64,000 bases of DNA. Origin: Marsupella aquatica (Eukaryota; Plantae; Marchantiophyta). Positions 7,566 through 31,650 of this stretch are shown piece after piece (the first letter of the stretch is position 1; each line of letters opens with the position of its first letter). The DNA lies in the NCBI GenBank assembly GCA_973895155.1, contig OZ316891.1, positions 1,479,324-1,543,323 on the forward strand. Direction: 5' to 3'. Made by a program: the position numbers and the translations under genes. The notes below the pieces were generated by a model, which made no database searches, was not told the origin of the DNA, and saw only the letters and a program-made list of their open reading frames with translations.

Positions 7566-7651
7566 CCACGTCATCGGAGGGGCCGCTCGTGCGACGGGAT
7601 TCTCTCCACCGTTACCTCCCGTGGGTCTGTCGAATAAAACATTGCCACGTA
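7566..7651. promoter_or_regulatory. Two ACGT-core elements (CCACGTCA, GCCACGTA) upstream of HY5; possible bZIP/HY5 binding sites
   Basis: Motifs at about 7566 and 7644 at the edge of the GC-rich region 5' of HY5. Function is inferred from known HY5 binding to ACGT elements. Confidence 0.3.
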
Positions 7652-9155: not shown

Positions 9156-9970
9156 GTGAAGATGCTTGGACAGCTTCACAACAACAATGGGGAGTGGGTC
9201 AATAAGAATCAGCTCAGCAACCAAATTCGCAGCAGTTGGCAGATTGGAGTGGGCGAATTCACAGCCTTCTATGAGGAACTGACCATCAACGACACTCCAG
9301 AATCTATGATGCATGCTTCATCAGTGCGTTGGCTGGAAGTGGGACTGGCCAGCCAGGAACATGGGGTGGTCCTTCCCGAATAGGATGTGGGCACTTAATT
9401 CGCTGAGCATGGAGGGAGACACAGCCCAATTGAACAGGAGATGGGGACAAAACGGAACCCCCGCAGAGTGGAGACAGACATGTATGGCAGAAAGTCTGGG
9501 GCGGCTGGGTGGTATCAAAGGTAAGGATATTCATATGGAGACTCGTACAGCACGGTTTTTTTACAAACGGACAGGCTCACAGATGGGGAGTGTGTGAGGG
9601 CACTTGCGAGCGATGCAATCTTGAAACTGAAACCACTGACCACCTATTATGTCAATGTAACAAAGTGATTACCCAGTGGATGGAACTGAAGTCACTCCTT
9701 CGCCACACCATTACCCTGAATTTCCTGGGTGACACCTTATATGGATCGATTCAAACTGCACTCAGACTGCATAAGCGAAACCCGGGTCCGATTGTGCTGT
9801 TGATGGAATTATGCAACACCACTTGGAAGGAGCGCAATGCTATGTGTATTCGAGGTTCCTAGGGCGTATGCCTAGCTGGGTGATTCTGAAGACTACTGCT
9901 GATCACATTCCCGATCACATCAAGACTATGCTGAGCCCTAGCTGCACGCAACGGAGAACAAGACAACTAC
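9156..9970 (+). pseudogene. Frameshifted LINE ORF2 C-terminus (zf-RVT zinc-binding domain)
   Basis: KVRIFIWRLVQHG...CERC..ETETTDHLLCQC and WKERN motifs typical of plant L1 ORF2; broken across several frames. Confidence 0.85.
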
Positions 9971-11277
9971 CACTAGAAGAAAACGTCCCCTTTTGAGACC
10001 CTATGCTTTGTGACTTTAGGGAGACTTTCAAAAATACATGACTCCAAGTTTAGGGGAGTCATTGTTGTTACATTTTATCAACTGATTTTTGGGGGATATT
10101 TGTGAAAGTCATTCCTACAACTTCTGATAAAGTAGCAATTGTAACACTAGTAGGGCAGTCATATGTAAGTTGAATAAGCTACTCTCCATTACGGCATTCT
10201 GAAATAGAGTGCAAGAAGGATTACATGCACTCTAGACATCACGGAATGTTCCATTTACAACCCTTGACTTGCAACTTGCGGAGTCGGGAGCACTAGGTGC
10301 ACATAGAAGGAATGGGGGTTTAGGGTTGCAGAACTAGTTAAATGTCTTCATGTCAAGAGCATTGTAGCTAGTTATCCTAGCTAGCCTAATTAAACGTGCA
10401 TGGGAGTACTTGCCTCTATAATAGTAAGTCTTATGCTGCTCAATGGATTCCTTAGAGTTCATGGGCAACTTTGACAAGAATATTGGGGTGATATCATTTT
10501 CAATTCAGGGCTAAAGTAGTGTCTGGCCCCCATTCTTTGTCCACCCTCCCTAAGTGGCATGTGTAAGGGTTAATTTACAGTTGCGTTCTAAGAGGTTACA
10601 GTTGCGTTCATTTAATCTTTGCTCACAAAGTGTCGTGTCCAATTTGCTTTAGGGTACTAACATGTGTATCAATGGCTCATGTCAACGCAAAGTGGTCGAG
10701 GCTCATTGGGTTTGGTTCACTAAGTGTCACTAAGTGTTAAGGTATGCTTTGTGCGTGAGTGTGCCTTTGGACACGAGTTTAGGGTGCGCGGGTTTTGTTT
10801 AGGGTTTAAACACGCCAGCAGAGTGCAAAGTTCAGTTCAATGTGCGTGGGAACTCGGAGGTTTTTGTTTCAGAAAAACTCACTTGTCCATTACGGGGACA
10901 TTCGTCGTGCCTGAAGGTCGTCACATTGTGCGCGGTCTCACAAAGTGGGGAGTGTGCTTCGCGATCGGGGCAGTTCCTTTGCGTAGGGGAGTTTTGCGCT
11001 TGGAGCTTGAAGGTTTACCTTCAAAGCTCTAGAGCATTCAAGCTGAGAGGGCGACCGGCTTGCGGAGTGGAGAGGTGAGCTGCAGTGGACGACGAGCTCT
11101 AGGACTGGGAGGAGCTGTGGGCGGGCAGGAGCTGCAATTTGGGAGCTGCTCTGGCCGCCGGTCTGGCCGAGGAGCTACGAGCGGAGAGCAGCTGGAGTGG
11201 AGCTCGAGCGGAGTGGAGCTGGAGTGGAGTGCTTCTGTCACACTGCTGAGGATTGCTATGTAGCTTCAGTTTGGGCG

Positions 11278-11680
11278 GGGGTGCGAGCAGAGGTGCTGAG
11301 AGCGGCTCAGGTGCCAAAGGAGGTGGTGCGAGCGGAGGTGCGAGCGGAGGTGCTGAGAGCGGCTCAGGTGCCAAAGGAGGTGGTGCGAGCGGAGGTGTGA
11401 GCGGAGGTGCTGAGAGCGGCTCAGGTGCCAAAGGAGGTGCTGAGAGCGGAGGTGCGAGCAGAGGTGCTGAGAGCGGCTCAGGTGCCAAAGGAGGTGGTGC
11501 GAGCGGAGGTGCGAGCGGAGGTGCTGAGAGCGGCTCAGGTGCCAAAGGAGGTGGTGCGAGCAGAGGTGCTGAGAGCGGCTCAGGTGCCAAAGGAGGTGCT
11601 AAGAGCGGAGGTGCGAGCAGAGGTGCGAGCGGATGTGCGAGCGGATGTGCTAAGAGCGGAGGTGGTAAGAGAGGTGCTAT
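11278..11680. repeat. G-rich composite minisatellite (modules GGTGCGAGCGGA, GGTGCTGAGAGC, GGCTCAGGTGCCAAAGGAGGT) inside the CACTA element
   Basis: Directly visible tandem modules, about six higher-order units with lengths in multiples of 3. Explains the Gly-rich and Pro-rich ORFs on both strands. Confidence 0.9.
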
Positions 11681-13382
11681 TGGATCACTGAGAAGGCTGC
11701 AACCTCTCTATCTTATTCCTACTATCTGGCGGTTGCAGTTGGAAGGAGGGTCGAGTGGCGAACATTTTGTCAGTTGAGGACTCAGCTGCGGGTTTGTCAT
11801 TTCCTGGAGCTCAATCGCTTGCTACTAAGACTACTGTTGCTGCAATTGCAAGTTGCTTGATCATGAGCTACCTAGCTCCATTGTGAGTTGCCTCCCTATT
11901 CTCCTTGTTCTCCCTGTCTCCCCCTTGCTTGCAGTTACTATCGCCAGGAAGAATGTGTTTGGCCAAGATGCTAGATTGCAACTTGTCTTCTTGCTTCTAG
12001 CTCGTGTATATGCTGGCATCCGTGGGGGTTCCTCGAGTTTGAGTCTGCAGAGGAAGAGTCTATCATAGTCTAATTAAATGTGGGCCATATTACTCTGGTC
12101 AATGAATGAGTTCCCTGGAAATAGAACCTCTCTGATTATAGAGGTGCGATTTGGTCAGAATGTTTTCCCCTCTCATTGTATCCACTGATGCCAACTCACT
12201 TTCATCACCTCAATTCTGAACAATGAGCGTAGTCTCAGGCTCCATACTGCCTATACTGAATGGTCTAGCTGCGATGTCCACCTCGGCTGAAGTGAGCTCT
12301 GACTTGGAGCCTTAACATTTGTGTTCTGTGGGGCTGATTAGAGTTGGTTCCGTCCAGAAGCTGCTCTACTAAAGTGATAGAGCTCCGGCTTGGAGGTGGA
12401 TCTTCACTTTTTTGTGGGTCTGAGTGACTTCTGTCTAGCTGGGCTTAGCTGAGTCAGTAATACATTCAAAAGAGGTGAGTATCCCTGACCAACATTTATT
12501 TACTCTTGACCACGCCAAACTAATGGCGCTTCAATTTGAACTTTCTAAGTCTGACTGCTGACTCCGCTCCTTAAAACCCACCTTAATTATATTCATGTCT
12601 TTCTTTTGTGCATGCGCATAATGTCTTTCATTCAGTTTAACATTAAATGTGAGACAGGGCTCCATCCAGCTCTTCTAGATGACAAGAAGGCATTGATCAG
12701 TTGCTTTTTGATCTTTCCTCACCAAACAAGAAATCTTTCTTACAAGAAACCTGTCTTACAAGAAATCCAGCCTGGCCGAGAAGCTGCAAGTGGGGAGGAT
12801 GTCTGTAGAAATTTGTAAGGAGTGGTTTGTCTCACAATGCCATTGTTGATGAAACCTTGCTTCTGCTGATGAAACCTTGCTTCTTCTTAATCCAATGCTT
12901 GCTGCCTTGTTACAACGTTTGTCTAGTTGACCACTTCAGTGCCTATTCTTCATTTCCTGTTGTTCCATTTTTGGAAATTTATGCTTAAGGAACCTGCATT
13001 TCCTTCCCTGTCCCCATGCTATCTCCACTGCACCTTCCACTGCTAGCTATGTTGATTCCTTCCACTGCTAGCTCTAGACAATGATGCAGTCCAAATGCTG
13101 ATCAGTCTCACTGGGGGTGCCGGTGCAGACACAAATCGCACTGTGTGATTGTAGTTTTGCTTTGTCGGGACGAATGTGTTTGGCTAAGATGCTAGATTGT
13201 GGCTTATCTTCTTGCTTCCATTCGTGTATATTCAATTAGTAGAAGCTGGGAACGAAGTGAAAATTGAATTTCCTTATATTAAGCATCCTAACCTAGAAAC
13301 TCAATACATAAACTCCTGGAGTCCCTCGGGACATAAAAATGAGCCAAATTGTTTCAAAATTGGGAACCTGCACCCGCACTAC

Positions 13383-13724
13383 TCAAACAAATGTGTTGGG
13401 CTTGGTGGCCTTGTAAGTCGTCTTTAGCTTTCGTGATGGAGGTTGAATCTTGCGGTACGTCAAGGGGAACTTGATCTTTGAATCATGGAATTGCTTGGTA
13501 CTTTCTCGCTTGCACAGAGAGACAGGGACTGTCGTAGTCTTGATGATCTGGATGCAAGGGAACCGAACTCTATGACAAGAAGCCATCTCATCGTACATCT
13601 GCTCTACAACGATGTTCAATGTGGTATCACGATATTTCTTGTACATGTTGGGATAACCTGTACGACTCTGATACCTCACCCAGATATCGAAGTTCTTAAT
13701 TGTGGTGGGCTTCTTTTCGAAGAT
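13383..13724 (-). pseudogene. RPL18A: Captured last exon of 60S ribosomal protein L18a (eL20), with upstream splice acceptor, inside the CACTA element
   Basis: cag|[37 protein letters not shown]...[15 protein letters not shown]. No 5' exons are recognisable nearby, and several normally conserved residues are substituted. Confidence 0.9.
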
Positions 13725-14732
13725 CTGGTAGACACATTATTCAGCATTTGCTAACTTCAAAACTAGAAGGGTAACACATTAAACAACAGATAAACTCACA
13801 ACATCCTCCTTTGGTCCTTCAGAGTCTGTACTTTGATTATGAAGTTTGACTGAGTTTATGTTTACTAAAAGAATGTGACTGTGTAAGAGTTCCGTTTGGC
13901 AGTGGATTGGTTGAAGCACTTCATGCTAGTGTGTTGTCTACAGCTCTTCAACCAGCTTTCGTCTTCCTTGTCTTTCACCACTTACGATGACATCAATTCA
14001 GCTAAGACCATAGAAGGTTCCAAAGCATCTAACTTGTAAAATCGCATTCTGTTACATCAAGGACTAAGGTGTTGGGTGCCAAAGGAGACAGCACAACAAA
14101 CACGCTGAAAAGACTTCAGGACTGGGTTCAACAAGGTAGTGAAGGTGCTTAGAGCCTAGTAAGTATGCATTCTGTATCTTTCTCTGTTGATGTGAGCTTG
14201 TGCATAATGGGAGTTGTAGTTGGCAAGAGTTCCAAATATGAATAGATCCAGAAGTATGTGATCATGTACTTGCTCTATAAAGTTATGAAGATATAAGCAT
14301 TTTCTGTTAGACCAGGCAACTTGGGAGTTGGTAAGTGTCACCTGCATCTGAGGGGCTACACCGGGGGCATCAGTGGAGGTTCACTTGCACAACACGACAA
14401 CCAGTGAATTTTCTCTCTGCTGCAACCTGCAAGGTGAGACTTTCGGTCTTTCTGGATGAAAAAACAGGATTTTAATACGATTGATATACATGTCCGTCGA
14501 GAATATGGGTTTATCACCAAGCTCTTTGTCTTAGGAAACTCATAAACTTAGAATCAAATATGTACTATGCACGTTTCATGCTATGTGTATACTATGACCT
14601 GTAGTTGGAACCAAGACAATGAGTGGGAACTGATTAGTTTAGGTGGTTGCTGTTGGCGAGGCAAGTCAACCTCCTGCTCACCTTGCTCATCAAAGGACGT
14701 GAACAGAGGACATCACAACGAAAGCAACACTT

Positions 14733-15182
14733 ATGGTGAGGACCCGCAACGCTGAACATGTGCGACTTGCACGCAAGGCAGAGATGTTGCGCCTTGAGTA
14801 TGTCAGACTTGGGATCCTTCCAGCCCAGTCTGCATGGTACTTTGAGTACCCTGTTGTTTCCAGGAACAACTACAGCCGGCCTCTACCTGCTTCAGTACCC
14901 TTCCTGACATCCTTGGTATTTGTGTCTCTTGTACATGCCCCGCCACAAATTAGGTGCCAAGGGTGTGTACACAGTTGCCAATATGACTGTCCTGCCTGTA
15001 GGGCTTCTGGCCCAGAATTGGATGACCGTTCTCTTGGATGCCGATTTTTGCACAGAGCACAATGTATCATCTGGAACCACTCGCCATCTTGCAGTGTGCC
15101 TGGTGATGTCACTTGTCTAGCCCTCCCAGACCCCACCACCGGTGACTTTGGTGTCTACACATGTTTGGATCACATGCTCTAG
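14733..15182 (+). CDS. CACTA accessory gene 1: 149-aa Cys/His-rich putative zinc-finger protein of unknown family
   Basis: ATG-initiated intact ORF with CxxC-x3-C-x3-CxxC ... C..HxxxC ... YxCxxH spacing; co-oriented with the other element genes. Confidence 0.55.
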   Translation: MVRTRNAEHVRLARKAEMLRLEYVRLGILPAQSAWYFEYPVVSRNNYSRPLPASVPFLTSLVFVSLVHAPPQIRCQGCVHSCQYDCPACRASGPELDDRSLGCRFLHRAQCIIWNHSPSCSVPGDVTCLALPDPTTGDFGVYTCLDHML

Positions 15183-15799
15183 AGGACCACTTGTCACACC
15201 GCATGCACAGACCAGATACCATTGACCTATAGCTTAACACTCTGACTTCAACACAGAGGATATTTACTTAAAATTTTGATGTATGAGCAATTTTGGGTCC
15301 AGGGTTTAGGGTCAACAGTACATAACTTATATCCTATTATGCCTGCACTAAGCAAAATATCCTAATTTAAGAGGCTAGCAAACTCGCATAAAAGTCTCTA
15401 TTGAAAGACTGCTTTCATGACTGCTTTAACCTGGTGAACATTGCAACGTTCAATGAATTAATGGGCCATGTGATAACCTGTAAAATGTGATTTATGCATC
15501 ACTTATTTGTCTCAGCCACTATCATAGCCTATTTAGGATGTATAAATTTCAACCCTTATGACACTGCTTCATACCAATCCTCTTCGAAGAATGCGCGTTT
15601 TACATGTCACGACTATTGTATGTGATTCAAATGCATGAAATGTTGTTGCAGATCTCCTTTGGTGAATCATAGCCACAATTAAAATTGAGGTGTTGGTGGA
15701 GCAATTGTATTAGGGGATCAGGTTTGTGTGTGGGCTCAACATACCAAAAGTATGTCTGCTCTGCATCCTTGTGTGGCCATTCCAATTCATTGCAGTAGC

Positions 15800-15943
15800 A
15801 AATGCCTTTGTACCTTAAATGCTAAATATATTTTACTTTCTGTGCAGTCTGCTAAATTGTAGAGTCTATCTAAATGCCTTTGTACCTTAAATGCTAAATA
15901 TATATTACTTTCTGTGCAGTCTGCTAAACTGTAGAGTCTATCT
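15800..15943. repeat. 72-bp tandem duplication (2 near-identical copies)
   Basis: AAATGCCTTTGTACC...GTAGAGTCTATCT at 15800-15871 and 15872-15943. Confidence 0.9.
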
Positions 15944-15954
15944 CATGCGCAGGC

Positions 15955-16639
15955 ATGGCATGACCTAAAATTCAAGCCAAAAAGCGTGTGACAGAGGTGA
16001 GAAACACAGGTGTACTTGGGGCAGATGTTACTAATTAACTTCTCTGCAAGTCAGATTTTCCAGAAGGCAGCTCATTGTTGTGCCATTTGTGACGATGGTG
16101 GGGGCCTGGTCATTTGTGAGGGCCCTTGCATGAGACATTTCCACCTCAACCTGGAGTCTGACCTTGCTGCAGAAAACAACTGTCCAGGGGTGGGCCTCCC
16201 GTCAACACACCAGGGAGACTGGATGTGCACTGATTGTTTGGAGAAGCAGGCTAAGTGTGCACAGTGTGGGAAGTTGGGGTCCTATGAGGGCTCTGTTGAT
16301 GCTGCAGCAAATGTTAGGAAATGTCCAGACCGTTTTTGTGTGAGATTTTTCTGTTTTGAGTGTTTGCCTGCTCATGCCACAGCTTGCCCACTTCATAGGT
16401 GCAAGGCATGTGGTGAGCATGATCATGAGTACTGGACTGACATAGTCCACTGTGCTAGGTGTCCCACCATGTGGCACTATCATTGCCTGAAAGATCGTCA
16501 AGCAGAGGGTTATGCTTGTGATAGAGAAATCTATGATCACTCTGCACATGGTGTTGATCGATGGATATTTTATTGTCATCGCCATGCCATTGATCCTACC
16601 TTGCGCACTCCTGTGAGAGATCACATATCTTGGCTGTGA
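15955..16639 (+). CDS. CACTA accessory gene 2: stand-alone EDM2-like atypical PHD-finger cluster (predicted exons 15955-15996, 16055-16639; codon 3 is TGA in this copy)
   Basis: CAICDDGG-LVICEGPCMRHFH, CxxCGKLGS, CPLHRCKAC, CARCPTMWHYHCL and IFYCHRHAIDPTLRTPVRDHI align in order with the PHD region of Arabidopsis EDM2 as recalled (CAICDNGG..CEGSCLRSFH; CPLHKC; CRRCPKSYHRKCL; IYCQEHEIDEELLTPVRDHV). Confidence 0.85.
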
Positions 16640-17230
16640 AGCTGAACATTGTACATGCACAGTGCACCTGATGTGGATGTACTATTTTTTGAGATTGCAG
16701 AGATTCCAATTTTGAAAAGGAGTTGGGTAGGCGAGTTTATATAGGCAGCACTTATCTTGTGCTCTGGCGTCAGTGGCTGGTACATGCCTATAAAAACTTA
16801 TCCTTACAAGCCTTCTTGGAAGTATTTAGGCTGAGTGGTCATTTTCATAAACACTTTCATCAGACTGCTAAATTAAAACAGGACTTCTAAGTTGTAAGCG
16901 TATAAATTATCAGGCATGCGATTAATCAAATTGCCCTATAAGTTTGTCATTGAACGTATCCTCCTTTACAACAAAATATGTATGTGCCATGACAAGTTGG
17001 TTGCACTTCATTTCACCTTCGATATGGATTTTGTAGTATATATTCAAACAATGTCCTGCATCCGTGCAGGTGCCTAGTACGTATTGTTCACATATCCCTT
17101 GTACCTATCAAAATTGGACCTGAGCACCAGTGGGCCAGATCAACTCAAAAAGCAGGAATTTTGTTGTCCTTGTATTGTCAGGTGAACCTATTCTTCCAAA
17201 ATTCACTGTCATCACGTAGGGTGTGTGTAC

Positions 17231-18103
17231 ATGGAGCCTGGGAAACGTAGAAAGTGTGACCACCCAGCAGTGTTTACAGGGGTCAGAGCCATTTTGGTCC
17301 ATGGCCAGCATGGGTTGACCAAAGTGCATTGGCCAACTGTACAGAAACAATTCTCTGAGCTCCATGGCACTGTAGTTCAGGACATCACTCCAGAGACTAC
17401 ACATGTTGTTGCAGGGACATGGCTATCAGTGATAAAGAAGTGGTCATGGTCCTACATGAATTCTGCAATTACTAAGCAAGGCCTAAAAGTAGTTGAGGCC
17501 TCTTGGATCACAGATTCCATAGCACATCAGATTGTACAGGATACTGAGCAATATGAGCTGTGGGAGGATGAAGAAGCTACTGCATCAGCTTGGGCTGAAC
17601 AAGAAGTCTGGGAAGCAAAGGCACGGCTTGCTGATGTCCAATATGGACCTGTACTCAACAAAGGACAGAGCTCTAGAAGGCTGAAGAGTATGTTGGTTGA
17701 GGAGACGAAGCAACCAACCCCCATTCTGAAAGGGCTGAGCATGGTATTTGTGGAGGCGGGAATTGGAGAGGTTAAGTGCAAAGTGTACAAGTCCACGGTG
17801 CTTGACCTAGGTGGGACAGTGGAGGAGAATATAACAGAGGACACCACTCATGTCATTACTAAGTCATATCCCAAAGCCTGCCGCAAGTTTGGGAAAGGAG
17901 ACATTCGCTTTTATGTCATGTCCCATAATATGTTTGTGGTTTCATATGCTTGGCTTGTGGAATCAGTAGCAGCTGGGAAGTGTCAAAACCCAATGGACTA
18001 TGATCTTTTTGAGGCCTGGCCACGGAAGGGTCAGGATCCTTACAGAGAGGACTATGAGACAACAAGTGAGGAATGGGTCATTAGCGATTCTGAATCAGAG
18101 TGA
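17231..18103 (+). CDS. CACTA accessory gene 3: intronless protein with two BRCT domains (DNA polymerase lambda-type BRCT), basic NLS-like N-terminus and acidic tail
   Basis: Two repeats with BRCT hallmarks: FTGV...LHGTVV..ITPETTHVVA...VVEASWITDS and LKGL...LGGTVEENITEDTTHVIT...VVSYAWLVESVAAGK. N-terminal KRRK. Confidence 0.82.
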   Translation: MEPGKRRKCDHPAVFTGVRAILVHGQHGLTKVHWPTVQKQFSELHGTVVQDITPETTHVVAGTWLSVIKKWSWSYMNSAITKQGLKVVEASWITDSIAHQIVQDTEQYELWEDEEATASAWAEQEVWEAKARLADVQYGPVLNKGQSSRRLKSMLVEETKQPTPILKGLSMVFVEAGIGEVKCKVYKSTVLDLGGTVEENITEDTTHVITKSYPKACRKFGKGDIRFYVMSHNMFVVSYAWLVESVAAGKCQNPMDYDLFEAWPRKGQDPYREDYETTSEEWVISDSESE

Positions 18104-18635
18104 GGAGTAGTAGCATCAGTTTGGACACAAGTTTTTTTGTATAAATCAGATCATTGAAATAAATGTGATCTTTGAACTAATGTACCTTGTTATGGTTGGT
18201 GGCAGTTGGGCTTATTTTACTGTTGGCGGATTGTTGTTTCTTGCTGCCTGGGGGTGTCACTGTAAACGTACTGGGTGGGCTCAAATCTCGGCGGTGAGAT
18301 ATCTGATACCGCTCTCACACCTATGCCTATGACTATACATGATTGGACTCTGATATGGTCATGGGTGTACATGTAGAGGCGGTACATTTGAGGACAGCTG
18401 TGGAGGTGGTGACACCCTCAAACATTGAGGAATTTTGTGTCATTCACTTGACAATAGGTACACTACTCGCAAACCTGTTTTTTTCTTTTGGGGTGGTTTA
18501 GGGTTTGTGAGAATTTATTACACGTTATGTTAACTCTTTTGGCACATACAGTCAGGGATGTATGGAACACAAATACCACCATTAGGCATCCCTGTTCACT
18601 GCTGTCCATGACTGCAGAGCTTCCAGCCTGTTACA

Positions 18636-21600
18636 ATGCACCCTGGTCACCACCCTCCCCAAACCCAGCCCAGGGCACAGGCACTGCCTTTGCATCATCC
18701 CACAAGGATATCACGCCATGATAATAAGCTTTGGCAGCGTGAAAGGTTACGAACCAGACTTTCAGGAGCCAGTAGGATGAGATGTCCTTGTGCAATCTGC
18801 CAAGGATCCCGTACCAGGGGTCTGAATGAGGTTTGGCGGCATATCGCGGTTCATGGAAGAGATCCACGACATCGAGTTTGGAATGATCCTGCAGAGGAAG
18901 ATTCTTCCGACGAGGAGTGGAGGTTAGAATTTGATGCTGCCAATGCTGCAAGACGGGCAAGTGAGGTTCTGCCTCGTGCATTTGAAAATGTTGTAGCTGG
19001 TCTCTGTGGGTTGTCAGCTCTCCAACGGGATGGTGCTCAGGCAGCACCACGTGACGAAGGAATTCATGTGGAAGAGATGGTGAGAGACATCTTCCAAGAC
19101 TTGGATGCATTTCATGATGGGCTGGACAATGAAGAGGATACGGCTGCAGATGCAAGTGTGCCCCCTGTCGAAGTGCCTCTTGATGAGTTTGAGATAGGGC
19201 AGGAAACCCCTGGGCATGATGGGATGTTTGGCTCTCCACTACAAATACAGGAAGGCAGGAAGTCTTTGTACCCCGGTAGCAAATGTTCTAAACTGGGATT
19301 TTTCATCATGTTCCTGAACATTTGCGGCAACCACAATGTCCCCAACGTTTTGGTTTCTGAGTTGTTGGCATTCTTGCGAACAACTGTGCTACTAGATGGT
19401 AATATTTTGCCCAAGAACATGTACGAGGCAAAAAGATGCATATCTAATCTTGGATTGAACTATGATTCGATCCATGCCTGTCCTGATGGGCATGTTCTTT
19501 TCAGAAAGGAGTATAAAGAATCGTTGACATGCCCTAAGTGTGGGAAGCACAGGTATCGGAACTCAGGAGTATAAAGAATCGTTGACATGCCCTAAGTGTG
19601 GGAAGCACAGGTATCGGAACTCAGGAAAGTCTATGGTTCCCGCCAAGGTACTTCGTCATTTTCCACTCATTCCCAGACTTCAGCGGATGTTCAGAAGCCG
19701 TGCCATCTCGGAGATGATGACTTGGGCAACTGACAAGAAAAGTGATGATGGGCTACAACGACATGCTGCAGATTCAAGGCAATGGAAACTCATAGATGAG
19801 ATGTATCCCGAATTTGCTGCTGAGCCAAGGAATGTCAGACTTGGGCTGTCATTGGATGGGGTAAACCCATTTGGAGACAAGAACAACAAATTTTCGTGCT
19901 GGCCTGTAACTATTTTGAATTATAACCTTCCTCCTTGGATGACTACAAAGCGATTTTTTGTTTTGATGGTCCTACTGATACCAGGGCCAGACAGTGCTGT
20001 ATCTGCCAACATAGATGTGTTTCTGGCTCCCCTAGTGGAGGAATTGAGAAAGCTTTGGGAGGAAGGAGTTCTCACATATGATGTCCTACAGAGGCTTGGG
20101 AGGTTAAACCCATTCATCCTTAGAGCCATTGTCATTCTGACTATAGCTGACTACCCAGCCCATGGGATGATATCAGACCAAACAACAAAAGGATATTGTG
20201 CTTGTACTATCTGTGGGCGCAATGTCACGAGTGAGTACTGCAGAGCCCTGCAGAAAGTGATATACATGGGCCATCGTCATTTTCTGAAGGCAGATCACCC
20301 TTACAGAGAAAGACAGGCACTGATTGCACACTTTGGCAATGAGATTGAGCAACGTGGACCCCCGGCACGAGTGACCAAAGAGGAGATCAGGCAGTGGGGA
20401 GCACTGAGGGATGACTATATCAAACGAGGGGGCAGGGAAGATGGAGTGAGTGATCCAATAAAGCGATATGGTGTAAAAAGACTGAGCATATTGGACTTGG
20501 AGCTCAAGTACTGGAGGGTAAGCCTCTTGGAGTTGATGCTAATTGGGATACATGTTTTGGTTCAGAGCATGCATTCATTTCGAAGAGAGAGACTAAACTT
20601 GAGGCATTTCCTGACGCTTTTGCATTGCAACGATGCAGGAGTTTGAGCCAAGCAAACATAACATTGATGTTATGCACATTGAAAAGAATATTTGTGAGAG
20701 TCTACTCAGATTCTTGTGTGGAGAGAAAGACACTGGTTCAGTGAAATTGGATCTTGAACAGAGGGGAATGAAACCCCATCTTTGGTTGAGGCCACATGCC
20801 CACAGAGCTGATGTGCTCTTGAAGTACCAAGCACCCTATGTTCTGACAGACACAGAGTGGGAACTATTTGTGCAGAGGTTGAGTTCTTTGAAGGTTCCTT
20901 CAAACTATGGCAGTGCTTTCAAGAAACATATCATGACTAGAAAGCTTGGTAGTATGAAAAGCCATGACTACCATATGTTGATGCAACAGGTGTTGCCTTT
21001 ATGCCTGAGGGGCCTGTTGCAGAAGCCTGTTCGTACTGTGATCATGCGACTCAGTGATGTGTTTCGTCGTATTTGTGTGAAGGTTTGGGATGAAACACAC
21101 TTCCCACAACTGACAGAAGATGTCGCTCAGGTGCTGTGTGACCTGGAGATTTATTTTCCTCCCGCATTTTTTGATGTCATGACCCACCTACTTGTCCATG
21201 TTGTGGAAGAGCTACACCAATTTGGGCCTGTGAGTGCTCGTTGGTTGTACCCTTTGGAACGGTACATGAAGCTACTCAAAGGTCACGTGAGAACATATTA
21301 CAAACCTAAAGCAAGCATGGCTAAAGGTTACATCAAGGATGAGACTCTGGGATTTCTGACCGAATACATAGCACAATATGAGCATGTGAAGACCAGGGTG
21401 TGGAATTCTGATGAGGAGGAAGGGGTGATAGGTGAAGTACTGGAAGGGGCTGCAACCACAAAGAACCTGACCATATCTATGAGAGACTTGGCACATGACT
21501 TTGTATTGCACAACACTGTGGTGATGGAACCCTGGATACAGTGAGTGCATACATGTGCTATAATCCAGTTCATGAGCTTAAATGTTGTGTTCGTGTGGTT

Positions 21601-22312
21601 TTCTCCTTTAGCCTGTTCATGTTTACCCAAGCTAATGCTGTGTGGTTGTTCGTTCAGGGAGTATGAGTCATTGAAGGCAGCCCATCCCACTGCAGGAACA
21701 ACTTTTCCAGGTTTCATGGAGTGGATCAGAGTGGCAATTAGAGAGCATCACGAGACCCACCCAGACATGGATGCAGATGTTTACCTACTGTCTAATGCCC
21801 CTAGCCTGAAAGTGAAGACTTACAAACGGATGAGAGCATATGGGAATCACTTTCGAGTGAAGGATGGTGACAGTGCCTACAGGGTGACGAATGACTGCGG
21901 GCTCATCACTGTATTTGAGCAACAGAGCCACAATCACGACAGGGCCTGGATGGAGATGGGATATGTGGGAGAATTAGTTGACATATGGGCTCTGGACTAT
22001 GGGGCGGTGTCCAGTCCTGTGATTCTTATGAAAGGTTCATGGGTGCGGCAGGATTGGCTTGGTAACAGGGCTACCATGAAGAGAGACAACGACGGTTTCT
22101 TGCTGGCCAATTTCAGAGGGAAATTGCCCGAATGGTCTGAGCCATTTGTGTTTCGTAGTCAGGTGGAGCAAGCTTTCTTCCTGGATGTGGAAGACTCCCC
22201 AGGTTGGCGTGTAGTGTGTCATAAACAGGCCAGGCAACGTCGGATGGAAGGATCAAACCTTGAGTTTCATTTACACTCTCATAGTGCCTTTGATCATCGG
22301 CGTTCAGACTAA
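18636..22312 (+). pseudogene. CACTA TnpD transposase (Transpos_assoc, Transposase_21, DUF4218, DUF4216), frameshifted by a 58-bp duplication; introns about 20518-20638 and 21542-21657
   Basis: CPCAIC..H, IHACPDGH, LRHFPLIPRLQRMF, RNVRLGLSLDGVNPF, DVMHIEKN, MKSHDYH, FFDVMTHLLVH, YPLERYM and EPFV..SQVEQAFF motifs. Confidence 0.95.
19508..19623. repeat. 58-bp perfect tandem duplication inside TnpD
   Basis: GGAGTATAAAGAATC...TATCGGAACTCA at 19508-19565 and 19566-19623; shifts the reading frame. Confidence 0.95.
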
Positions 22313-22579
22313 GTGCCTGTAGTTCATGATAGCGGGGACTTCATTCCTGTGACAAGGGTAGATGCATTTGCTAAAGGAGGCGAATTCAAAGATGCAGATG
22401 CCAACAGTGTGCCTGTGCCATGAGTAATGTGAATTGTTTGCATGGACATTAGTGAGGGGAAGGATGTGTAATAAAGTAATTCTAATGCAACACAGATGTA
22501 TGGATGGATGCCTGGTGATTGTGGTTGCATTGTGTTATACGGGGTGATCATAGATGACATGTTTTTGTGGTCCAGTAGG

Positions 22580-25500
22580 ATGGAACAGAGTGACACAGAG
22601 ATGTGTGAGTATGAAAGGAAAGCTATGGAACACCGAGCATACGTGAAAGCCAAAATCGCAGAACTGGATCTGGAAAAGGATGTGGCTGAATTGTAAGGGA
22701 ACGATTCTCAACTACACCCCTCCGCTGAGTTTGTGTGACATGAATAGTTCAATGTGGCACTGAAATTGTGACTATATTCTCATATTGGAATGTCGTAGAG
22801 CCACAGCATTTTCAAAGAAACAAAAGGAGTACCCAAGAAGGGTGACCAGCACTATCTCTGGGCCTGTGCGTCGGAGTGACAGGTTGAGCAAGAAGGTCGT
22901 ACCTACAATGGCAGAATGTGGAGATGACATTGATGCTGCACAGGTGGGTGCAGACACTAGACAAGAAGATGCAGATGATGAGTATTTTCCAGAGGAAATG
23001 GATGAGGATGGGGGTTATGAAGATGAATACATTGCAGAGCAGCCCCAAAAGAAACAGGTAAGTAGTTTTCCCAACAAGGTTTTGAGTTAAAAACTCTTGT
23101 TTAGAGGTTTCATATGTTCAGTACTACACATATGTACCTTGCTTAGTTCCTGACATTGTAATTGGTGATGTGATGCAGCGTCCTGCCAGTTCTGTTTTGC
23201 CTTCGAAGCCTGTGCATGCACCATACCAGCAGGGGGGGCTGACCTCTGATCAAGGTTGGCAAGGTGGTAGTAGTGGTAGATCCCAGGCTGGTGCCCAATA
23301 CTATGGCAGGGGGCAAGCTCTAGGTTATGCCCGTGGTAGAGGCTGAGCAGGTCCAAACCCACAATCTCGTGGGTATGGACGTCCACCTCAACCATGGGGA
23401 TGTGAGTATATATCTATATGCTAGTTCTTTGTGAAGGCATGGCACTCCTGAATTTCAGACTGCATATCAATTTTTGACATTGTTTGGTATGTATTGGATT
23501 CAGACAACATGAAATTCTGTCCACCTGCCATTGCATGCAGATTCTGCCCAACCTGATTGGGCAAATGCTAGTAATGATCAGTTCCAATGTCCACAAGGAC
23601 AGACATGGGTTGAACCAGGTTGGGAGGATGGTGGTGGGTCGTGGAATGAACAAGGTTGGGAAGGTGGTGAAGGTAATTGGCAGGGATATCAAAATACAAT
23701 ACCTACAAACGCTGGAAGAGGGGCAGGTAATGTCTGATCTTGTCAGCAATGGAAGAACTCATTATATCTGGAGTCCATTCACGTGGGGGGGGACTCTGCA
23801 CATGTATAATGATAGAAAATGTATGTGTGCAGGTTGGACAATCGAACCATCGACTCAAGTATTCACTAATGCCCCTATGCAGATGCAGCACGGAAGGGGG
23901 ACAGGTATGTTGGTGAATGTTCAGTTGTTTTCCTACAGTTTGTACTTAGTTTTCAGTACATATGTTTGCACACACATACCTAGAAAGTGACATCATCCGG
24001 CCCCTGTACTAGGCTGGACAGGTGGTCCAAGGTCGCAACAATTTCAGAGTGCAGTCCTTGCACATGCATCTACAGGCAGAGCTACAGGTATGTATGTTTG
24101 AAGAATTTTTCTTGAAGTGAAGCATTGAATGTTGCCGTCATCCATTCTGCTATATGTAGTTCTCAAGCATGAATGGCATTGTATTTTCCCAGGTGGCTTC
24201 AGAACCCCAGGTAGGGTGAATGAAGGGGTGGCCAATACAACGCCCAGTACTACCGAGAGAAGTGCACGAGGGGAGGTGACAAAGAAAGGGAACGTAAAGT
24301 TGAATGAGAGACAATGGGTGGATGCTGAGTGTCCTCGCAAGAACCGATGGCATGCTGATTTGAAAGCTGAAGTATTGCGTTGGTTAGATGTGAGTGTTAT
24401 TAATTTTAAAAAACAGCATCCAAAAGATTGGAAGATTGTATGTGAAAATGTTGCTGCCAAATGGAATTATGTGGGCAGTGATGATGGCGTGGACATAGGT
24501 TGCCTAGAGAGTACAGCAGGTAAAATCATCAAGCAAGAGAGGTGGAGAATGCATAAGGCTTGGAAGGAAGGTGGGGAGAAGCCAGATATGCCTCCACCAG
24601 CCAGTTGTGATGATAAAGTGTGGGCAAGGTTAGTAGCTTATTTTGTAACAGATGCTTCAAAAAAGAAGAGTTCACAGATGACCGAGGCCAGGTTGAGTGT
24701 TCAGAACCCTAATCTGACAGGAAGGACCGGCACTGCACCGACAGCTAAACGTTTGGTAAGAATGAATGGCCTAGCTAAGTAATTTATGCTACACTATGTA
24801 CTGTTTTTTAGTGTAAACCCATACATGTAAACTTTGTTTTTAAGTGTACGTTCCTTGAATATTGATCGATAACTTGTGTTTGCCATGCATGTGCAGAAAG
24901 CCCAATTGGGGCAAAGCCCTTCAAAAGAAGAGTTGAGGGCTGAAATTGTGAACACCCAGGCTCAAGAGGGTGCATCTGAATCCTCCAAGCATGTAAGTTA
25001 TATGAGTTCTGATTGGTAATTGAATGACCTACGTTGAATTTCAGGTGTACACTGTATATAACATTGATTGTGCATATATTGCCCAACATTTCATATGGAG
25101 TGATTGAACCTATACCCCTGTGTCATGTAGGGAGGTGGATCTTCACTTACAGAGATAAGTGGTCGTTTGAAGGCTGTCGAAACATGTCTTCCAGAGATCA
25201 ATGAACGTTTGAATTCATTGACTGACTTGTTCCATGTGAACTTCAAGACATTAATGGAAGCTGTTGTGTCGGTGAGAGATAAAATTGATTCCAATTCTGC
25301 AGGAGTTCCACCATCACCACTTGAGGTGGCAAAGTCGATGCACTCTTCTGGCATGGCAACGACATGTAGGCTTGAAGGTAAGGCCTTTACAACTGTGTGG
25401 GATATGATTATTAAATGTATAGTTTGAATTGACATTGTTTGTTGAATGTGTTATTTTTAGTAACATATATTGTGGTTGTTGTGTCCATAGAGAATAAGAC

Positions 25501-26287
25501 AGGTGCTACAGAGAAGAAGTATGAGAACCTGGCAAATACTCGCTATAATTTAGAGGCAACAAAGTTGCAGTCTGTACAAGCAACTTGTTTGACAGAGGGC
25601 AGTCAACCATGTTTGGATGAGGATGACATTGGCAAGGGAGTGGATGATATCAATGTTGGGGCAAATGAGGATATCAGCAAGCATGACAATGATACCATTG
25701 AGCCAGATTCATGCTATGTAGATCTTGACTCCATTGCAGAGATAAATGATTTGCAGAATGTATCATTCTCAATGACAGGTGTGCCTCTTGTTGAGATAAA
25801 TCCAACCAAAGAGTTAGTTGGTATGACACTCCCAGGTGATGAACCTGCTACTGTGACAGTCCTAACAGAGGAACCTACTGAGCCTAGCTTCACTACTGTG
25901 AAGAGAGGAAGCATGCGCACACGAAGCAAGTCTGCTGGTGGGAGCAGAGCCATGTCAAAGGTTTCATACAAACCTCCAAGAACGGTGCTGGCAGAAAGAT
26001 CTAAGGTGGAAGTGGGGAAAGCACCTAATGCTGAGGGACAAAGTGGCTTGTTAGCTCTTGATGAGAGTGGAACACGAGTAGGATTTGGCAGAGTGCAGGT
26101 TGGTTCCACAACGTTCCATGGCAAGAGGATTCCCCCAGGTTATTCAGTAGTGTTAGTCACATTACTAGTGAAACCTAAAGCTGTCCTTCCCATTCCAAAC
26201 ACAAATGATGATCCTCCTCAAAAGACACTTGGAGATGCTGCAGGTTCTTTGGTATTATGGCCAAGCAAGTTCATAGAGGATCCATAA
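22580..26287 (+). pseudogene. Multi-exon CACTA TnpA-like gene (GW-rich low-complexity region, Transposase_24-like core, C-terminal Transposase_23/DUF8039-like domain); in-frame TGA at 23344
   Basis: Phase-consistent GT-AG exons include 23179-23401, 23541-23726, 23833-23904, 24013-24087, 24193-24755 and 24898-24992. Motifs WARLVAYF..KKKSSQMTEAR..NLTGRTG, LGQSPS and C-terminal FHGKRIPPGYSVV...LPIP..TLGDAAGSLVLWP. Confidence 0.75.
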
Positions 26288-26784
26288 CAATGTCATGCCA
26301 TTATTTGTTTGTAGTGTGAGTCATGTTATGTAGATTTTAGATGTCAAGAAGCAATACAAGAATCATGTCCTCTTGGAGATTCATAGTATCATGCATGTGC
26401 TTTCAGTTATCTCATCCTGCAGTCATCAATTATGAGTTCCTGTTTTGTCTGAATTACATTGATCACATTGTAAACTATTCCATTGGAATTCAAATGATCT
26501 TCATTTTTTAGCAAGATTGTGATTGTGTTTAATTCTTATGAATGTTTTATGTAGGATCTGCTTATATGATGCTTTGTTTCATGTGGATGTCATTCATGCT
26601 ATGTTCATTTCTTGTATTCAATGTGTTATATTTCTAAAGTTAGAACATCAGGTTTCTATGTATTGTAATGTCGAGTGCTCTCTCTCCTTATGAACTGTCC
26701 CTCTGTGTTCATTAGTCATGGTTATAACTTGCATGTGAACCTTATTAGTTATAAACATGAGTATATAGAGTCCCAAATGGTTCT

Positions 26785-27110
26785 GTTGTGTGACGCGGGC
26801 CAGGGTCTCCATTGGTCTCTCCTGTGACACTAAATGGTCACACGCTAGTCGTTGTTGAATGCGGGTAAGTCATGCATGTGACTTACGATGTGACTCGCTG
26901 AAGTCATATTGCAGTCACGTCGAAACAAGGCTAGACTCCACAATAAAGTCACAGATCAGTCACAAATGGGTATCAAGCAAGTTGCAAAGCCCAGTATCAA
27001 TAGTGACTACCATTTTTTGGTCTCAACTTTTGCAACTCCAAGGGTCACAGCGTGGGTCAAGTCACGTTGAGTCACAATGAAGTCACATGAGCCAAAATGA
27101 GTCACATATT
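26785..27110. repeat. CACTA 3' subterminal repeats (GTCAC/GTGAC core in both orientations), putative TnpA binding sites
   Basis: More than a dozen GTCAC/GTGAC cores within about 330 bp of the 3' TIR; a few related motifs occur just inside the 5' TIR. Confidence 0.75.
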
Positions 27111-29157
27111 GCGGTCTCAGTTCACCTCGGATTCTTCTAGTGTACAAAGGGTGGTTGACGAGCTCCATTTTGTCCTTCGCCCATATATGGGCCAACAGCA
27201 AGATTCCCAACCCTATGATGGGTAATGAAAATAACTAACTGCAAAGGCTTGATGTTGGGGCAGGAAGTCAGAAGGCTCATTCTTCAGAATGGTTGGGACT
27301 CACAGTCCTTCGACTTGCCATGCACAAGTCATGTTTGACACAGAAATTCTAACACAACAGGTATCACAGAGACAGGTTAGTTAGCAATTGGAGCAAGCTA
27401 GGCAGACCACAATTGGTGGGACTATTCTTTGCCCAATTCCGAAAGGTTGAAGCATAGAGTTTTGGTTGGGAAGGCTAGGATGATCTTGTTATGAGGTAAC
27501 TAGTCCTAGACCAGACTAGGAGGTTACCTTTACCATGGTTACCTCAAGACACTATATATACACCCGGTTGATCCCCAACCGAGTGATTCATTCATTCATA
27601 CATTCATTCAATCTCTCTCCCTCTCCAACTATGTATGAATCCTATATCACAACACGTTATCAGCACGACTCTCGGAGGCTGAGCACTTGAATTTTTTTTA
27701 GGGATTCGACAAGTGACAAAAATTAGACACTTGAGGGAATCCCAAGACAAAATCCCTTCAAGGAAACCTTCATTTGAGAGTCCATGTCAACCTGGCGTTG
27801 GAAATTGATGGAGTATCCTCTAAGAGAAACTGACTCCCAAGAAATTAGAAGAAACAAAATCAGAAGGAGAGGCTGATCAGACAAAGAGTTGAACCAATGG
27901 ATTGACCCTTATGGGATCATTAATAAAAGCTTTAGAGGAATTGAGTCTGAAATGCAAGATTGAAAGTACGAAGCATGATTTATGGAAGGAGGAGAAGAAA
28001 CACTGTAGCGCAAAGTCCATAGAGAAACCAGGATAAAGCTTGGGCTGGAGTCAATCAATCCAATCAAAGAGACCTGATTGAATAGAGGCAGAGCACAATC
28101 TACAAAATTTCAATCAAGGTGAGATCTGAAAAGGCACCACACCCTATAGAGAACGAATGTTGCATTAGGGCTCAACAACCGGAGGGTGAAAAGGACTAAA
28201 GGAAATTTGAGGGATGGAAACCTCATGAGAAGACAACATAGTGATCACGGACGCAACCGCGAAGCCATGCAAAAGGGGGAGAATCGATGCACAAGCCCAA
28301 AACGGCAAAATTTGGACCAGGCTTTTCGAGAAACCATCGACAAAACTTGATAAGTGCAAAACCCCCATACTTGCAACTCATTATAAAGAGTATTTTTACT
28401 TACAAAAGAATGAGATCACTTAAAGCATCTTTTTCAAAGCTTTTAAATCACTTTAAGATACATGTGTCATCCTTAACATAAACCTAAATCACAAGCTTAC
28501 ACTCTCATTTTACAAATGTGAATACTGTGCCTTTACACAACACATTGAATACATATAACATGGTTATTACACCATTAAAATCACTTTCCACCATAGGGGG
28601 AGGAAAGCACATTGTACCCACAACTATCTCCCACCTCCAAATGTCATTTTGGTTCATTCACCTTCTAGTACCATTTGAACTTATACACCTTCTGGTATCA
28701 TTTGATCTCATAAGATCCAAACGGACTCAGATAAGGGACTTTCTATGACTAACAAAGGTATGTAGAGGTTAACTCAGTCTTGGGTTGAACTATGGTTAGT
28801 ATGTTAACTAGGGTTAGAGTAAACCCTAGTTGAAGAGTTGGTCCTTATCTCTTTAACTTCTATGTGGTGTGAGAACACACAAGAGAGTTCTCAAGAGAGA
28901 ACACAGTGATATATATAGCATGAGATGAGAGCTTGAAGAGATGGGAGCTATGGTGATGCTTGAGTAGACACATAACTGTTAATAAAGCTTGGTCTTCCCG
29001 TGGACATAGCCAACCTTGAGGCAAACCACGTAACTATTGAACACGTGTATGTTTGGAGTGTATTTCCTGATCTGATTTCTCCCCACAAGGTAAAGGTAGA
29101 GATGATTTGATAATGGGCAAAGCCCCTAATCTCATCTATACATGAGTTAATGAGGAG

Positions 29158-31370
29158 CTGAGCGACTCAACCGCACATTGTTGGAGCGAGCAAAGAGCAT
29201 GTTGAGCCACTCTAAATTGCCACAAATCTTTTGGGCGGAAGCTGTCAACATAGCTGCTTATCTCGTAAATCTCTCTCCTACTCGAGCAATTACTTACAAA
29301 ACCCCCTTTGAGCTATGGCACAATCGACCTGCTGATTATTCAAAGCTTAAGGTTTTTGGCTGTGAAGCATATGCACATGTTCCTAGCAACAATAGGACTA
29401 AGCTAGATCCTAGAGCCCAGAAATGCATTTTTCTTGGTTATCAGCGTGACGTTAAAGGATATCGATTGTGGGATCCAGTTGATTGCAAGTTACTTGTTAG
29501 TCGGGATGTATCCTTCAATGAAGACAAATCATTGAAGGAGGGGGAGATAGATCAATTCCCTACTACTAACAAAGTGCAATCTCCTCCTCTAGAGGATTTA
29601 AGAAGAGAGGATGTGTCAAAGGAAGAATATGTTGACACTACTATAAGGCAAAACACACTACAATCAGATCAGCCAGAGTCTTCAGTGCGAAGAGGAACTT
29701 GTAAACGTCAAGCCCGGGAAAGGTATGGAACTTGGCTTCCTTCTGATCAAGTGGATTTGGATGAAGAATCTATTGATGTATTGGTGACAGAAGATGGAGA
29801 TCCATCCTCATTTCGAGAGGTCCTAGCTTCTATGGAGAAGCAACAATAGCAGGCGGTGATGCGCATGGAAATGAAATCACTTCATGATAACAAGACTTGG
29901 GAACTCACAAGTCTACCTAGTGACAAGCAGACTGTTGACAGCAAGTGGGTGTATAGGAAGAAAGATGGACCCACGGAGGATGCTGAGAAGATATTTAAGG
30001 TTCGGTTGGTAGCCAAGGGTTTTACTCAACAGAAAGGTATAGACTACAATGAGGTTTTTTCACTCGTAGCAAAGTATTCAACAATACGTTTGCTATGTGC
30101 TCTTGTAGTTTTATTTGATCTGGTTTTAGATCAAATGGATGTTGTCACGACATTCTTATATGGATCGTTGGATGAGGTGATTTACATGAGGCAACCAGAG
30201 GGTTTTGTGCAAAAGGGCAAGGAAAATTTGGTATGCAGGTTGCTAAAATCCTTGTATGGATTAAAGCAGAGTCCAAGGCAGTGGAACAAGCGTTTTGATG
30301 AATTTTTGAAATCGCTTGGATTTGTGCGAAGCGTGTACGATCCATGTGTTTACATCAGGCGTGTGAACAACACAGGTTTTAAGCTTGTCATCCTTGTACT
30401 TTATGTGGATGACATGCTCATTGCAGCACAGGATAGGGGCGAAGTTGATAAGCTTAAGTCCCAACTCAGTTTTGAGTTTAAGATGAAGGATTTGGGCACA
30501 GCCAAGAGGATCCTAGGCATGGAGATTGTCAGGGATATTAACAAAGCCAAACTTTGGCTGACGCAAAAAAGATATGCAGAGAAGGTACTCTCAAAATTCA
30601 ACATGGCAGATGCTAAGGCTGTGAGTGTTCCTTTGGCAAGGCATTTCAATATTTCTGCAGCATTTTGTCCATCGGATGCTACAGAAAAAAGTTTGATGTC
30701 CAAAGTTCCTTATGAAAGTGCTGTGGGTAGTTTAATGTATCTCATGGTATGCACCCGACCAAACATAGCTTATGCTATTAGCAAGGTAAGCAGATACATG
30801 GCAAATCTAGGAAAAGTTCATTGGGAAGCAGTGAAATGGATTTTGCGCTACATCAGAGGTTCTACTAAGAAGGGTTTATTGTTTGATGCAAGTTCAAACA
30901 ATATGAAAGGTCTTCAAGGTTATGTGGATGCAGACTACGCAGGTGATCTGGATAAGAGGAGATCGACAACTGGATATGTATTTACACTTGCTGGTGGATG
31001 CATTAGTTGGAAGTCTACTCTCCAAAAGTGTGTTGCAAAGTCTACTATGGATGCCGAGTATGTAGCAGCAGCAGAAGCAGCGTCAGAGACCATTTGGTTG
31101 AAAAAGCTTGTCACGGAGATGGGTTTATCACAAGAGTGTGTATATCTTCATTGTGACAGTCAAAGTGCAATTTACACTGCCAAGAATCAGGTGATGGATG
31201 GCAGGGTAAAGCACATTGATGTCCGCTATCATTTCATCCGACAAGCATTATCGGATGATGAATTTGAGCTTGTCAAGATTGATGGAAAGCTTAATCCAGC
31301 GGATGCTTTTACCAAAGTATTAGACTCCAATAGTTTTTCAAGGCATTGTAATTATTTACAAATATTGTAA
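29158..31370 (+). pseudogene. Copia pol fragment: integrase C-terminal part, reverse transcriptase and RNase H, with in-frame TAG at 29847-29849
   Basis: AERLNRTLLERAKSML, KLDPRAQKCIFLGY, RLVAKGFTQ, LLKSLYGLKQSPRQW, LYVDDML, GYVDADYAGD, KHIDVRYHFIR, NPADAFTK. Confidence 0.96.
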
Positions 31371-31650
31371 ATATAGAGTTAACCAAGAAAATGTCTCTAT
31401 ATGAGTATTCCATCCGATGGCTTATCGGCTACGGCTTAGTTCTAGTTAACCCTTGCATTAGGGGGAGGGTCTTTTGGCCCTACTGTCTTGAACTTCCCGC
31501 GGAGGAACGTGTAAGGAAAAGACAATGTTATGAACTCTCCCAAGACGTGAGTCAAGGGGGAGTTTGTAGAGGTTAACTCAGTCTTGGGTTGAACTATGGT
31601 TAGTATGTTAACTAGGGTTAGAGTAAACCCTAGTTGAAGAGTTGGTCCTT

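Follow-up and report, generated by a model that had tools for sequence, protein, structure and literature searches.

Does the CACTA transposon at positions 9971-27142 of a 64,000-nucleotide stretch of the Marsupella aquatica genome (assembly GCA_973895155.1, contig OZ316891.1, positions 1,479,324 to 1,543,323 of the forward strand; hereafter the window) carry three accessory genes that its family has kept, or host fragments picked up in passing, and what might such genes do for the element? The genes in question lie upstream of the transposase genes TnpD and TnpA and encode a Cys-rich orphan protein (gene 1), a cluster of EDM2-type PHD domains (gene 2) and a pair of BRCT domains (gene 3). An earlier reading of the letters alone (the original prediction) had described them as a maintained module that reads or shields heterochromatin marks and recruits break-repair factors. 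To judge from the comparisons presented here, the CACTA element is real, its three-gene cassette is family-wide and constrained, and we consider it very probable that the cassette is maintained in the family. The role in countering silencing is held more tentatively.

The element of the window measures 17.2 kb and is bounded, as predicted, by exact 11-bp inverted ends (CACTAGAAGAA) with the duplicated TAC on either side. We found only two matches to CACTAGAAGAA in the 64 kb at one mismatch or fewer, for a chance expectation of 1.72; this count by itself is no proof of an element. The boundaries were accepted because the ends are exact and oriented inwards, the TAC is duplicated, a second 7-mer internal to the terminal repeats is common to both ends, and a transposase is enclosed. 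Genes 1 to 3 were confirmed to lie head-to-tail on the same strand as TnpD, and the spacers between consecutive genes, through to TnpD, measure 772, 591 and 532 bases in order. The features are as follows.

9968 to 9970, unstranded: left target-site duplication TAC (direct sequence match)
9971 to 9981, + strand: 5' terminal inverted repeat CACTAGAAGAA (exact; a contig of public run X1 is identical over 7921-9995)
9982 to 14572, unstranded: variable 5' arm, with subterminal RGTCWY motifs, a 57-base tandem array and captured pieces
13383 to 13736, - strand: captured RPL18a/eL20 fragment (uninterrupted, residues 63-177)
14573 to 27142, + strand: shared family core with gene 1, gene 2, gene 3, TnpD, TnpA and the 3' end (contig coverage)
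14733 to 15182, + strand: gene 1, Cys-rich orphan of 149 amino acids (open frame, basic N-terminus)
15955 to 16639, + strand: gene 2, stand-alone EDM2/NSD-type PHD cluster (broken in the window copy)
17231 to 18103, + strand: gene 3, 290 amino acids with two BRCT domains (open; basic N-terminus, acidic tail)
18636 to 22312, + strand: TnpD transposase (two predicted introns at ~20518-20638 and ~21541-21657; frame shifted)
22580 to 26290, + strand: TnpA-like multi-exon gene, exon limits approximate (stop at 23344 in the window copy)
26750 to 27131, unstranded: 3' subterminal AGTCAC/GTCACA motif cluster (shuffle test)
27132 to 27142, - strand: 3' terminal inverted repeat CACTAGAAGAA (exact)
27143 to 27145, unstranded: right target-site duplication TAC (direct sequence match)

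TnpD matched Transposase_21 in Pfam (E 2e-69) as well as DUF4218, DUF4216 and Transpos_assoc, and the TnpA-like gene matched Transposase_24 at E 2e-4, weaker than the curated cut-off. In the 3' motif cluster one 6-mer occurs 11 times, whereas the maximum in shuffles averaged 3.4 and none of the 500 shuffles reached 11, and the AGTCAC/GTCACA motifs are likely TnpA sites. All the features tested (ends, 3-base duplication, TnpD, TnpA-like gene, motif clusters and past mobility) indicate that the element is a member of CACTA/EnSpm. Rfam gave no match in the analysed sequence.

Eleven public runs were listed, nine of them with part of the cassette, and four (X1, X2, X5 and X7) were analysed. All 30 bins of 14500-27250 were covered in each of the four, and the contigs over this interval numbered 5,537 in X1 (with 57% of that run read) and 11,731 in X2. 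The median summed contig depth, a rough measure that is inflated by overlapping short contigs and gives no copy number, was 56k for the cassette, 59k for TnpD, 58k for TnpA and 38 for the flank in X1, and 146k, 119k, 120k and 100, respectively, in X2 (one bin holding a miniature inverted-repeat transposable element, MITE, being excluded from the flank medians). The cassette is thus about 1,000 times as deep as the flank in both runs and on par with TnpD and TnpA: the element is highly repeated, its cassette is not rarer than its transposase genes, and the cargo is not a feature of this copy only. The thousands of contigs, this depth relative to the flank and a likely empty site, where an X2 contig tracks a diverged version of the flank and departs from it precisely at 9970, speak for past mobility.

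The 17.2 kb of the original prediction stand as the bounds of the window copy and not as the family unit. The depth at 10099-11200, in the 5' arm, was ~2.4k in X1 and ~3.6k in X2, far below that of the core, and at 14573 contigs of X2 and X7 pass from the window sequence into different sequence upstream. Because the depth of the arm is low and contigs switch sequence at 14573, we define the family unit as ~14573-27142 plus a variable 5' arm. Contig joints at 14875-15699, 15171-25728 and 18858-23856 bypass internal parts of the element and correspond to deletion derivatives, one of which retains gene 1 and loses genes 2, 3 and TnpD.

Several features of the 5' arm were observed in the window copy. 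The antisense RPL18a piece covers residues 63 to 177 of plant eL20 with non-conservative changes, at ~80% identity to its best match as counted by eye; it is uninterrupted and closest to plant eL20, a captured scrap as had been proposed. The 57-base tandem array lies at 11275-11680, within a segment (11250-11777) that has an open Gly/Ser/Ala-rich frame on the + strand and a Pro/Leu-rich frame on the - strand; the + frame had no Pfam match. A 65-base segment at 11947-12011 is repeated at 13168-13231 with 86% identity.

The window element is a decayed copy of its repetitive family. Gene 2 has a TGA at codon 3 (15961-15963), where the closest relatives read M-A-R, four extra bases near 16032 that are absent from contigs in three of the four runs, and private missense changes. 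A 58-base tandem duplication (19507-19626) puts TnpD out of frame, and the stop of TnpA at 23344 is AGA in contigs of three of the four runs. The claim that the main frames are open thus holds for genes 1 and 3 and fails for gene 2, with its early stop and frameshift. The ratio of observed to expected CpG is 0.20 in gene 2 and 0.19 in gene 3 but 0.67 in the left flank; the depletion suggests that these genes have long been methylated.

Gene 2 gave only weak NSD-type PHD matches in Pfam (best E 4e-5, short of the curated cut-off). A profile search of 1.84 billion proteins returned 341 matches, and among the best 150 of these the short stand-alone proteins ranked first, followed by long EDM2-like proteins named from Calypogeia, Marchantia, Riccia, Ceratopteris, Platanthera and Artemisia. 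In quick trees, the larger of which used 66 of 132 eligible rows (all 21 short and 45 long), short PHD proteins were set apart from the rest by a long branch (11 of 66 rows with a support of 99 in the Shimodaira-Hasegawa-like approximate likelihood ratio test, SH-aLRT, and 7 of 24 rows with a support of 100). Shared within the short clade are the loss of ~22 residues and the replacement of an H ligand by C in PHD2. It adjoins a group of short liverwort paralogs with a support of 88 that was not starred, and its placement beside this group is neither shown nor rejected. None of the 16 short-type clusters looked up has a species-named member, and truncations and frameshifts are frequent among the short relatives, as expected of dead transposon copies.

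The profile search, the trees and the colinear NSD/EDM2 PHD array with its zinc ligands all uphold the EDM2 ancestry originally suggested for gene 2, in the form of a stand-alone cluster in which the remainder of the EDM2 architecture (RFD and the long C-terminal part) was not found. Three relatives were recovered at 87, 82 and 60% identity, and host EDM2-like proteins are 33-36% identical. In the family, gene 2 is likely a single exon encoding ~226 amino acids. A model with a 67-base intron at 15997-16063 was dropped, as that segment contains the conserved F-S/T-x-x-E/Q-V motif, seen in 13 of 135 scanned proteins (11 short-type and two from Calypogeia).

CAM6087769.1 (P0017, Calypogeia fissa) and KAL3685775.1 (P0021, Riccia sorocarpa) represent an EDM2-like paralog of ~700 amino acids whose PHD cluster lies close to the end; this paralog is a candidate donor lineage of gene 2. 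The PHD cluster of gene 2 is colinear with that of EDM2 and of this short liverwort paralog through the C-terminal TPxRDH motif, and in the Calypogeia protein an F-S-x-x-E-V motif also precedes PHD1 and the chain ends shortly after the cluster. The gene 2 type differs from both in its length (~220 versus 700-1600 amino acids), in having no RFD or C-terminal domain, in the PHD2 deletion and in its low identity. A linked-locus scan for gene 2 returned four loci, of which one was a true member: L002:529-1200, on a 1.9-kb metagenome contig, is a distant single-exon representative of the short clade, 42% identical to gene 2 and with one in-frame stop. The prokaryote genomes scanned for linked loci yielded nothing for gene 2 or TnpD.

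Gene 3 matched BRCT in Pfam (E 9e-13) and has two relatives of equal length, 60 and 54% identical; in Atlas it met generic BRCT clusters only, under 0.9. The best matches of its BRCT domains were repair scaffolds such as Rtt107, BRCA1 and ligase IV, all weak. An origin from Pol lambda, suggested at first, is unsupported, since the human Pol lambda BRCT, to which the comparison was confined, reached only E=1.2 against gene 3 and was missing from searches with BRCT2 only. No linked loci of gene 3 were found in metagenome or viral contigs, and the terminal repeat was absent from viral contigs. Gene 1 has one relative, P0009, which is 54% identical, also starts with MVRTRN and has a similar end; gene 1 itself had no match in Pfam, NCBIfam, PDB or Atlas. 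The AlphaFold models of genes 1 and 3 were unusable (mean predicted local distance difference test, pLDDT, of 38.5 and 34).

Constraint was tested at the protein level, by BLOSUM scores and by stop-free survival against neutral simulation, as a stand-in for the ratio of nonsynonymous to synonymous substitution rates (dN/dS). The changes in gene 3 were more conservative than neutral ones (mean BLOSUM of -0.06 and -0.22 versus -0.58+-0.15 and -0.61+-0.14), and none of the 300 neutral runs at each divergence level remained stop-free. In gene 2, compared with six relatives, 123 of 132 Cys were kept versus 503 of 933 other residues. Together with the presence of the cargo beyond one copy and the low identity of gene 2 to host proteins, this supports the maintained module of the original prediction. 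The cargo is not near-identical to host genes, the searches with genes 1 and 3 having met no close host relative.

Passive Pack-CACTA capture, in which the three genes would be hitch-hiking host fragments in decay, is in our view very improbable. Such capture is documented (PMC6379663, in the part of the text available), the element does hold a plain captured scrap in the RPL18a piece, and gene 2 is broken in the window copy and has private missense changes. However, TnpD and TnpA are just as broken in this copy, the genes' own starts and stops are common to their relatives, zinc ligands are conserved over branches longer than one change per site, and host proteins reach only 33-36% identity.

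A number of points nevertheless weigh against the reading as a maintained module, beginning with the roughness of the depth measure. X1 and X2 carry flank sequence exactly as in the window, may include its source and are not independent lineages. No listed contig piece exceeds 775 bases, a length at which a second full-length copy was not seen, and we infer the gene order in other copies from depth and short overlaps. The relatives P0001 to P0015 are protein sequences without DNA context, and the short flanks of L002 show no gene 1, gene 3 or transposase. As to constraint, gene 1 scored a mean BLOSUM of -0.99 versus a neutral -0.84+-0.18 with 7 of 10 Cys kept (in comparison with its one relative), P0005 is neutral-like by BLOSUM relative to gene 2, and ~2% of neutral runs remain stop-free for genes 1 and 2. 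Protein databases also favour open frames, so that stop-free relatives are pre-selected by gene calling.

Runs X5 and X7 bear on the question from a greater distance. Host-gene pieces in these runs differ from the window at ~13-18 letters per 100 and mostly have depths of 10-41, and diverged contigs reach depths of 5,864 (X5) and 4,715 (X7) at the first PHD of gene 2 (16135) and of 4,035 (X5) and 7,033 (X7) at the TnpD cores (22155). Contigs thousands deep are confined to these two places, the TnpA peak being far weaker. The pattern fits a related repeated family that carries gene 2 and TnpD, their linkage being deduced from depth. Pieces of low depth in X5 and X7 that are near-identical to the window were not taken as signs of presence across species; they are likely carry-over, which we suspect because X5 holds read-length exact pieces of the flank at depth 4.

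The divergent relatives could also be ordinary host genes of an unsampled plant lineage, picked up recently by this CACTA family only. Annotated genomes are sparse for the host lineage, and no relative was seen beside a transposase. We rate this explanation lowest of all, considering that none of the 16 short-type clusters has a species-named protein, that many short-type relatives are broken and that the diverged matches in X5 and X7 are ~hundredfold deeper than the host-gene pieces. Alternatively, the three genes might be separate captures of differing age, each selected for its own reason and forming no joint system. This would agree with the deep clade of gene 2 (16 short-type clusters) beside two relatives of gene 3 and one of gene 1, with the greater depth of genes 1 and 2 than of gene 3 in X2, and with the contig joints at 14875-15699 and 15171-25728, which omit parts of the cassette. 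The search effort was unequal though, a deep profile search being made for gene 2 only, and all three genes have relatives at 54-60% identity and an alike compact layout; we regard separate captures as rather improbable.

As for function, we tentatively favour, at somewhat less than an even chance, a reading in which the three genes form an accessory module that helps the element to stay expressed and mobile in silenced chromatin. Gene 2 would derive from an old capture of an EDM2-like host gene, since reduced to the reader module with a basic start resembling a nuclear localization signal. Its protein would bind histone H3 tails at element copies marked by dimethylation of H3 lysine 9 (H3K9me2), where it may either imitate EDM2 or displace host readers. 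From domain type and composition, gene 3 could act as an adaptor that binds host chromatin or repair factors, and gene 1 as a small zinc-binding partner. Family specificity would be supplied by TnpA at the subterminal motifs; it is assigned to TnpA because no VANC-like target arrays were found, the six spacers showing no convincing 6- to 8-mer enrichment (one AT-rich 7-mer, P=0.03). We infer both counter-silencing and break-repair recruitment from domain type.

EDM2 is reported to bind H3K9me2 chromatin and to promote full-length transcripts, and COPIA4 transcripts are lost in edm2 mutants (PMC7529245, PMC3632883, available text). Three points weigh against a counter-silencing role. In the same sources Mu1 is de-repressed in edm2, so that EDM2 also represses some transposons. 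In Spm, according to the part available of bioRxiv 10.64898/2026.08.24.746577, TnpA itself drives demethylation of the ends, and a second anti-silencing system is thus not required. Finally, gene 2 is without the rest of EDM2 and without the acidic stretch that precedes PHD1 in long host proteins, and its binding may therefore differ from that of EDM2.

The main rival to counter-silencing is that the genes are selected transposition cofactors, the PHD protein steering insertion to a chromatin state and the BRCT protein bringing repair factors to the excision or insertion gap. Reader domains do guide integration elsewhere, as in the chromodomains of chromoviruses and the PHD of RAG2. The constraint and linkage data fit this explanation equally, the window copy is situated among host genes, and the best BRCT matches, weak as they all are, are repair scaffolds. 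However, BRCA1-type BRCT repeats have a Ser/Thr-Gly phosphate pocket, which was not seen in the gene 3 alignment of three sequences, and the cassette genes are separate from the transposase, with a putative physical link. We consider the cofactor explanation unlikely, and retain the counter-silencing module as the working interpretation.

Compared with known systems, the element resembles En/Spm in its CACTA ends, 3-base duplication, subterminal motif clusters and TnpD followed head-to-tail by a TnpA-like gene. In Arabidopsis EN/SPM2, 5, 6 and 9, TnpD and TnpA are separate tandem genes, and the available text describes these elements with TnpD- and TnpA-type genes only (PMC13547354), whereas the core of the window element adds three co-oriented genes. 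A survey of 962 Spm proteins refers to 'various accessory proteins', PHD and BRCT being unnamed in its sections 4 and 6 (bioRxiv 10.64898/2026.08.24.746577). Elements bearing ULP1, such as the grapevine Cactavine families, are known (PMC2528002, in part); there too a host-derived protein domain occurs in several CACTA families, but it is one protease domain and not three separate genes with a histone-reader cluster and a BRCT pair. Pack-CACTA capture (PMC6379663, PMC13317346, both in part) is matched by the variable 5' arm with its RPL18a scrap only: Pack elements are described as non-autonomous with fragments, in contrast to a core that comprises transposase genes and apparently whole, constrained genes.

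The closest parallel in organization is VANDAL, a DNA transposon with separate accessory genes, one of which likely comes from a host chromatin regulator (VANC from MAIN, as gene 2 would from an EDM2-like gene; PMC13547354, available part). The DNA targets of VANC are tandem repeats in non-coding regions, and its anti-silencing activity is proven (PMC10398659, PMC13547354, likewise in part), whereas the window cassette belongs to another superfamily, showed no sequence likeness to VANC and is only proposed to counter silencing. Genes 1 to 3 had no match of the VANC or MAIN kind in Pfam, NCBIfam, PDB or Atlas. On this comparison the cassette would not be a VANC member, though it may work like one.

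It is conceivable, and we advance it with real reservation, that a land-plant CACTA lineage captured the host heterochromatin reader EDM2, trimmed it to a free PHD module and has since maintained a three-gene counter-silencing cassette made up of this module, a BRCT adaptor and an orphan zinc protein. DNA transposons would then have dedicated anti-silencing genes of a second kind, independent of VANC, in a system that reads histone marks instead of DNA repeats. Our literature search found no paper pairing CACTA, EnSpm or DNA transposons with PHD, BRCT or non-seed plants, although Repbase, subscription journals and preprint supplements may hold such elements. In VANDAL, counter-silencing by dedicated genes is proven, and in Spm the task falls partly to TnpA; a host heterochromatin-reader module borne by a CACTA element would, if true, be a new route in the arms race, and gene 2 a small natural tool for the isolated action of the EDM2 PHD cluster. 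Function aside, the analysis points to a clade of short PHD proteins that seems to have escaped annotation and to an unusual CACTA layout of five genes.

Around the element, X1 and X2 each contain an exact and a ~10%-diverged version of the flank (1-9970), which suggests a hybrid or polyploid host. The excluded flank bin corresponds to a small MITE-like hairpin at 8989-9081, which is ~4,000 deep in both X1 and X2 and at 8989 adjoins many different sequences in each of the four runs. Downstream, ~350 bases past the CACTA end, retrotransposon remains occupy 27487-34860 and include two copies, at 27487 and 34693, of a 168-base repeat; their integrase- and reverse-transcriptase-like frames at 29154-31367 are presumably of Copia type. 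They are followed on the - strand, at 36176-43621, by what we take from its motifs to be a host ABCB-type transporter gene, and at 48183-48499 by an imperfect palindrome of ~320 bases, possibly another MITE.

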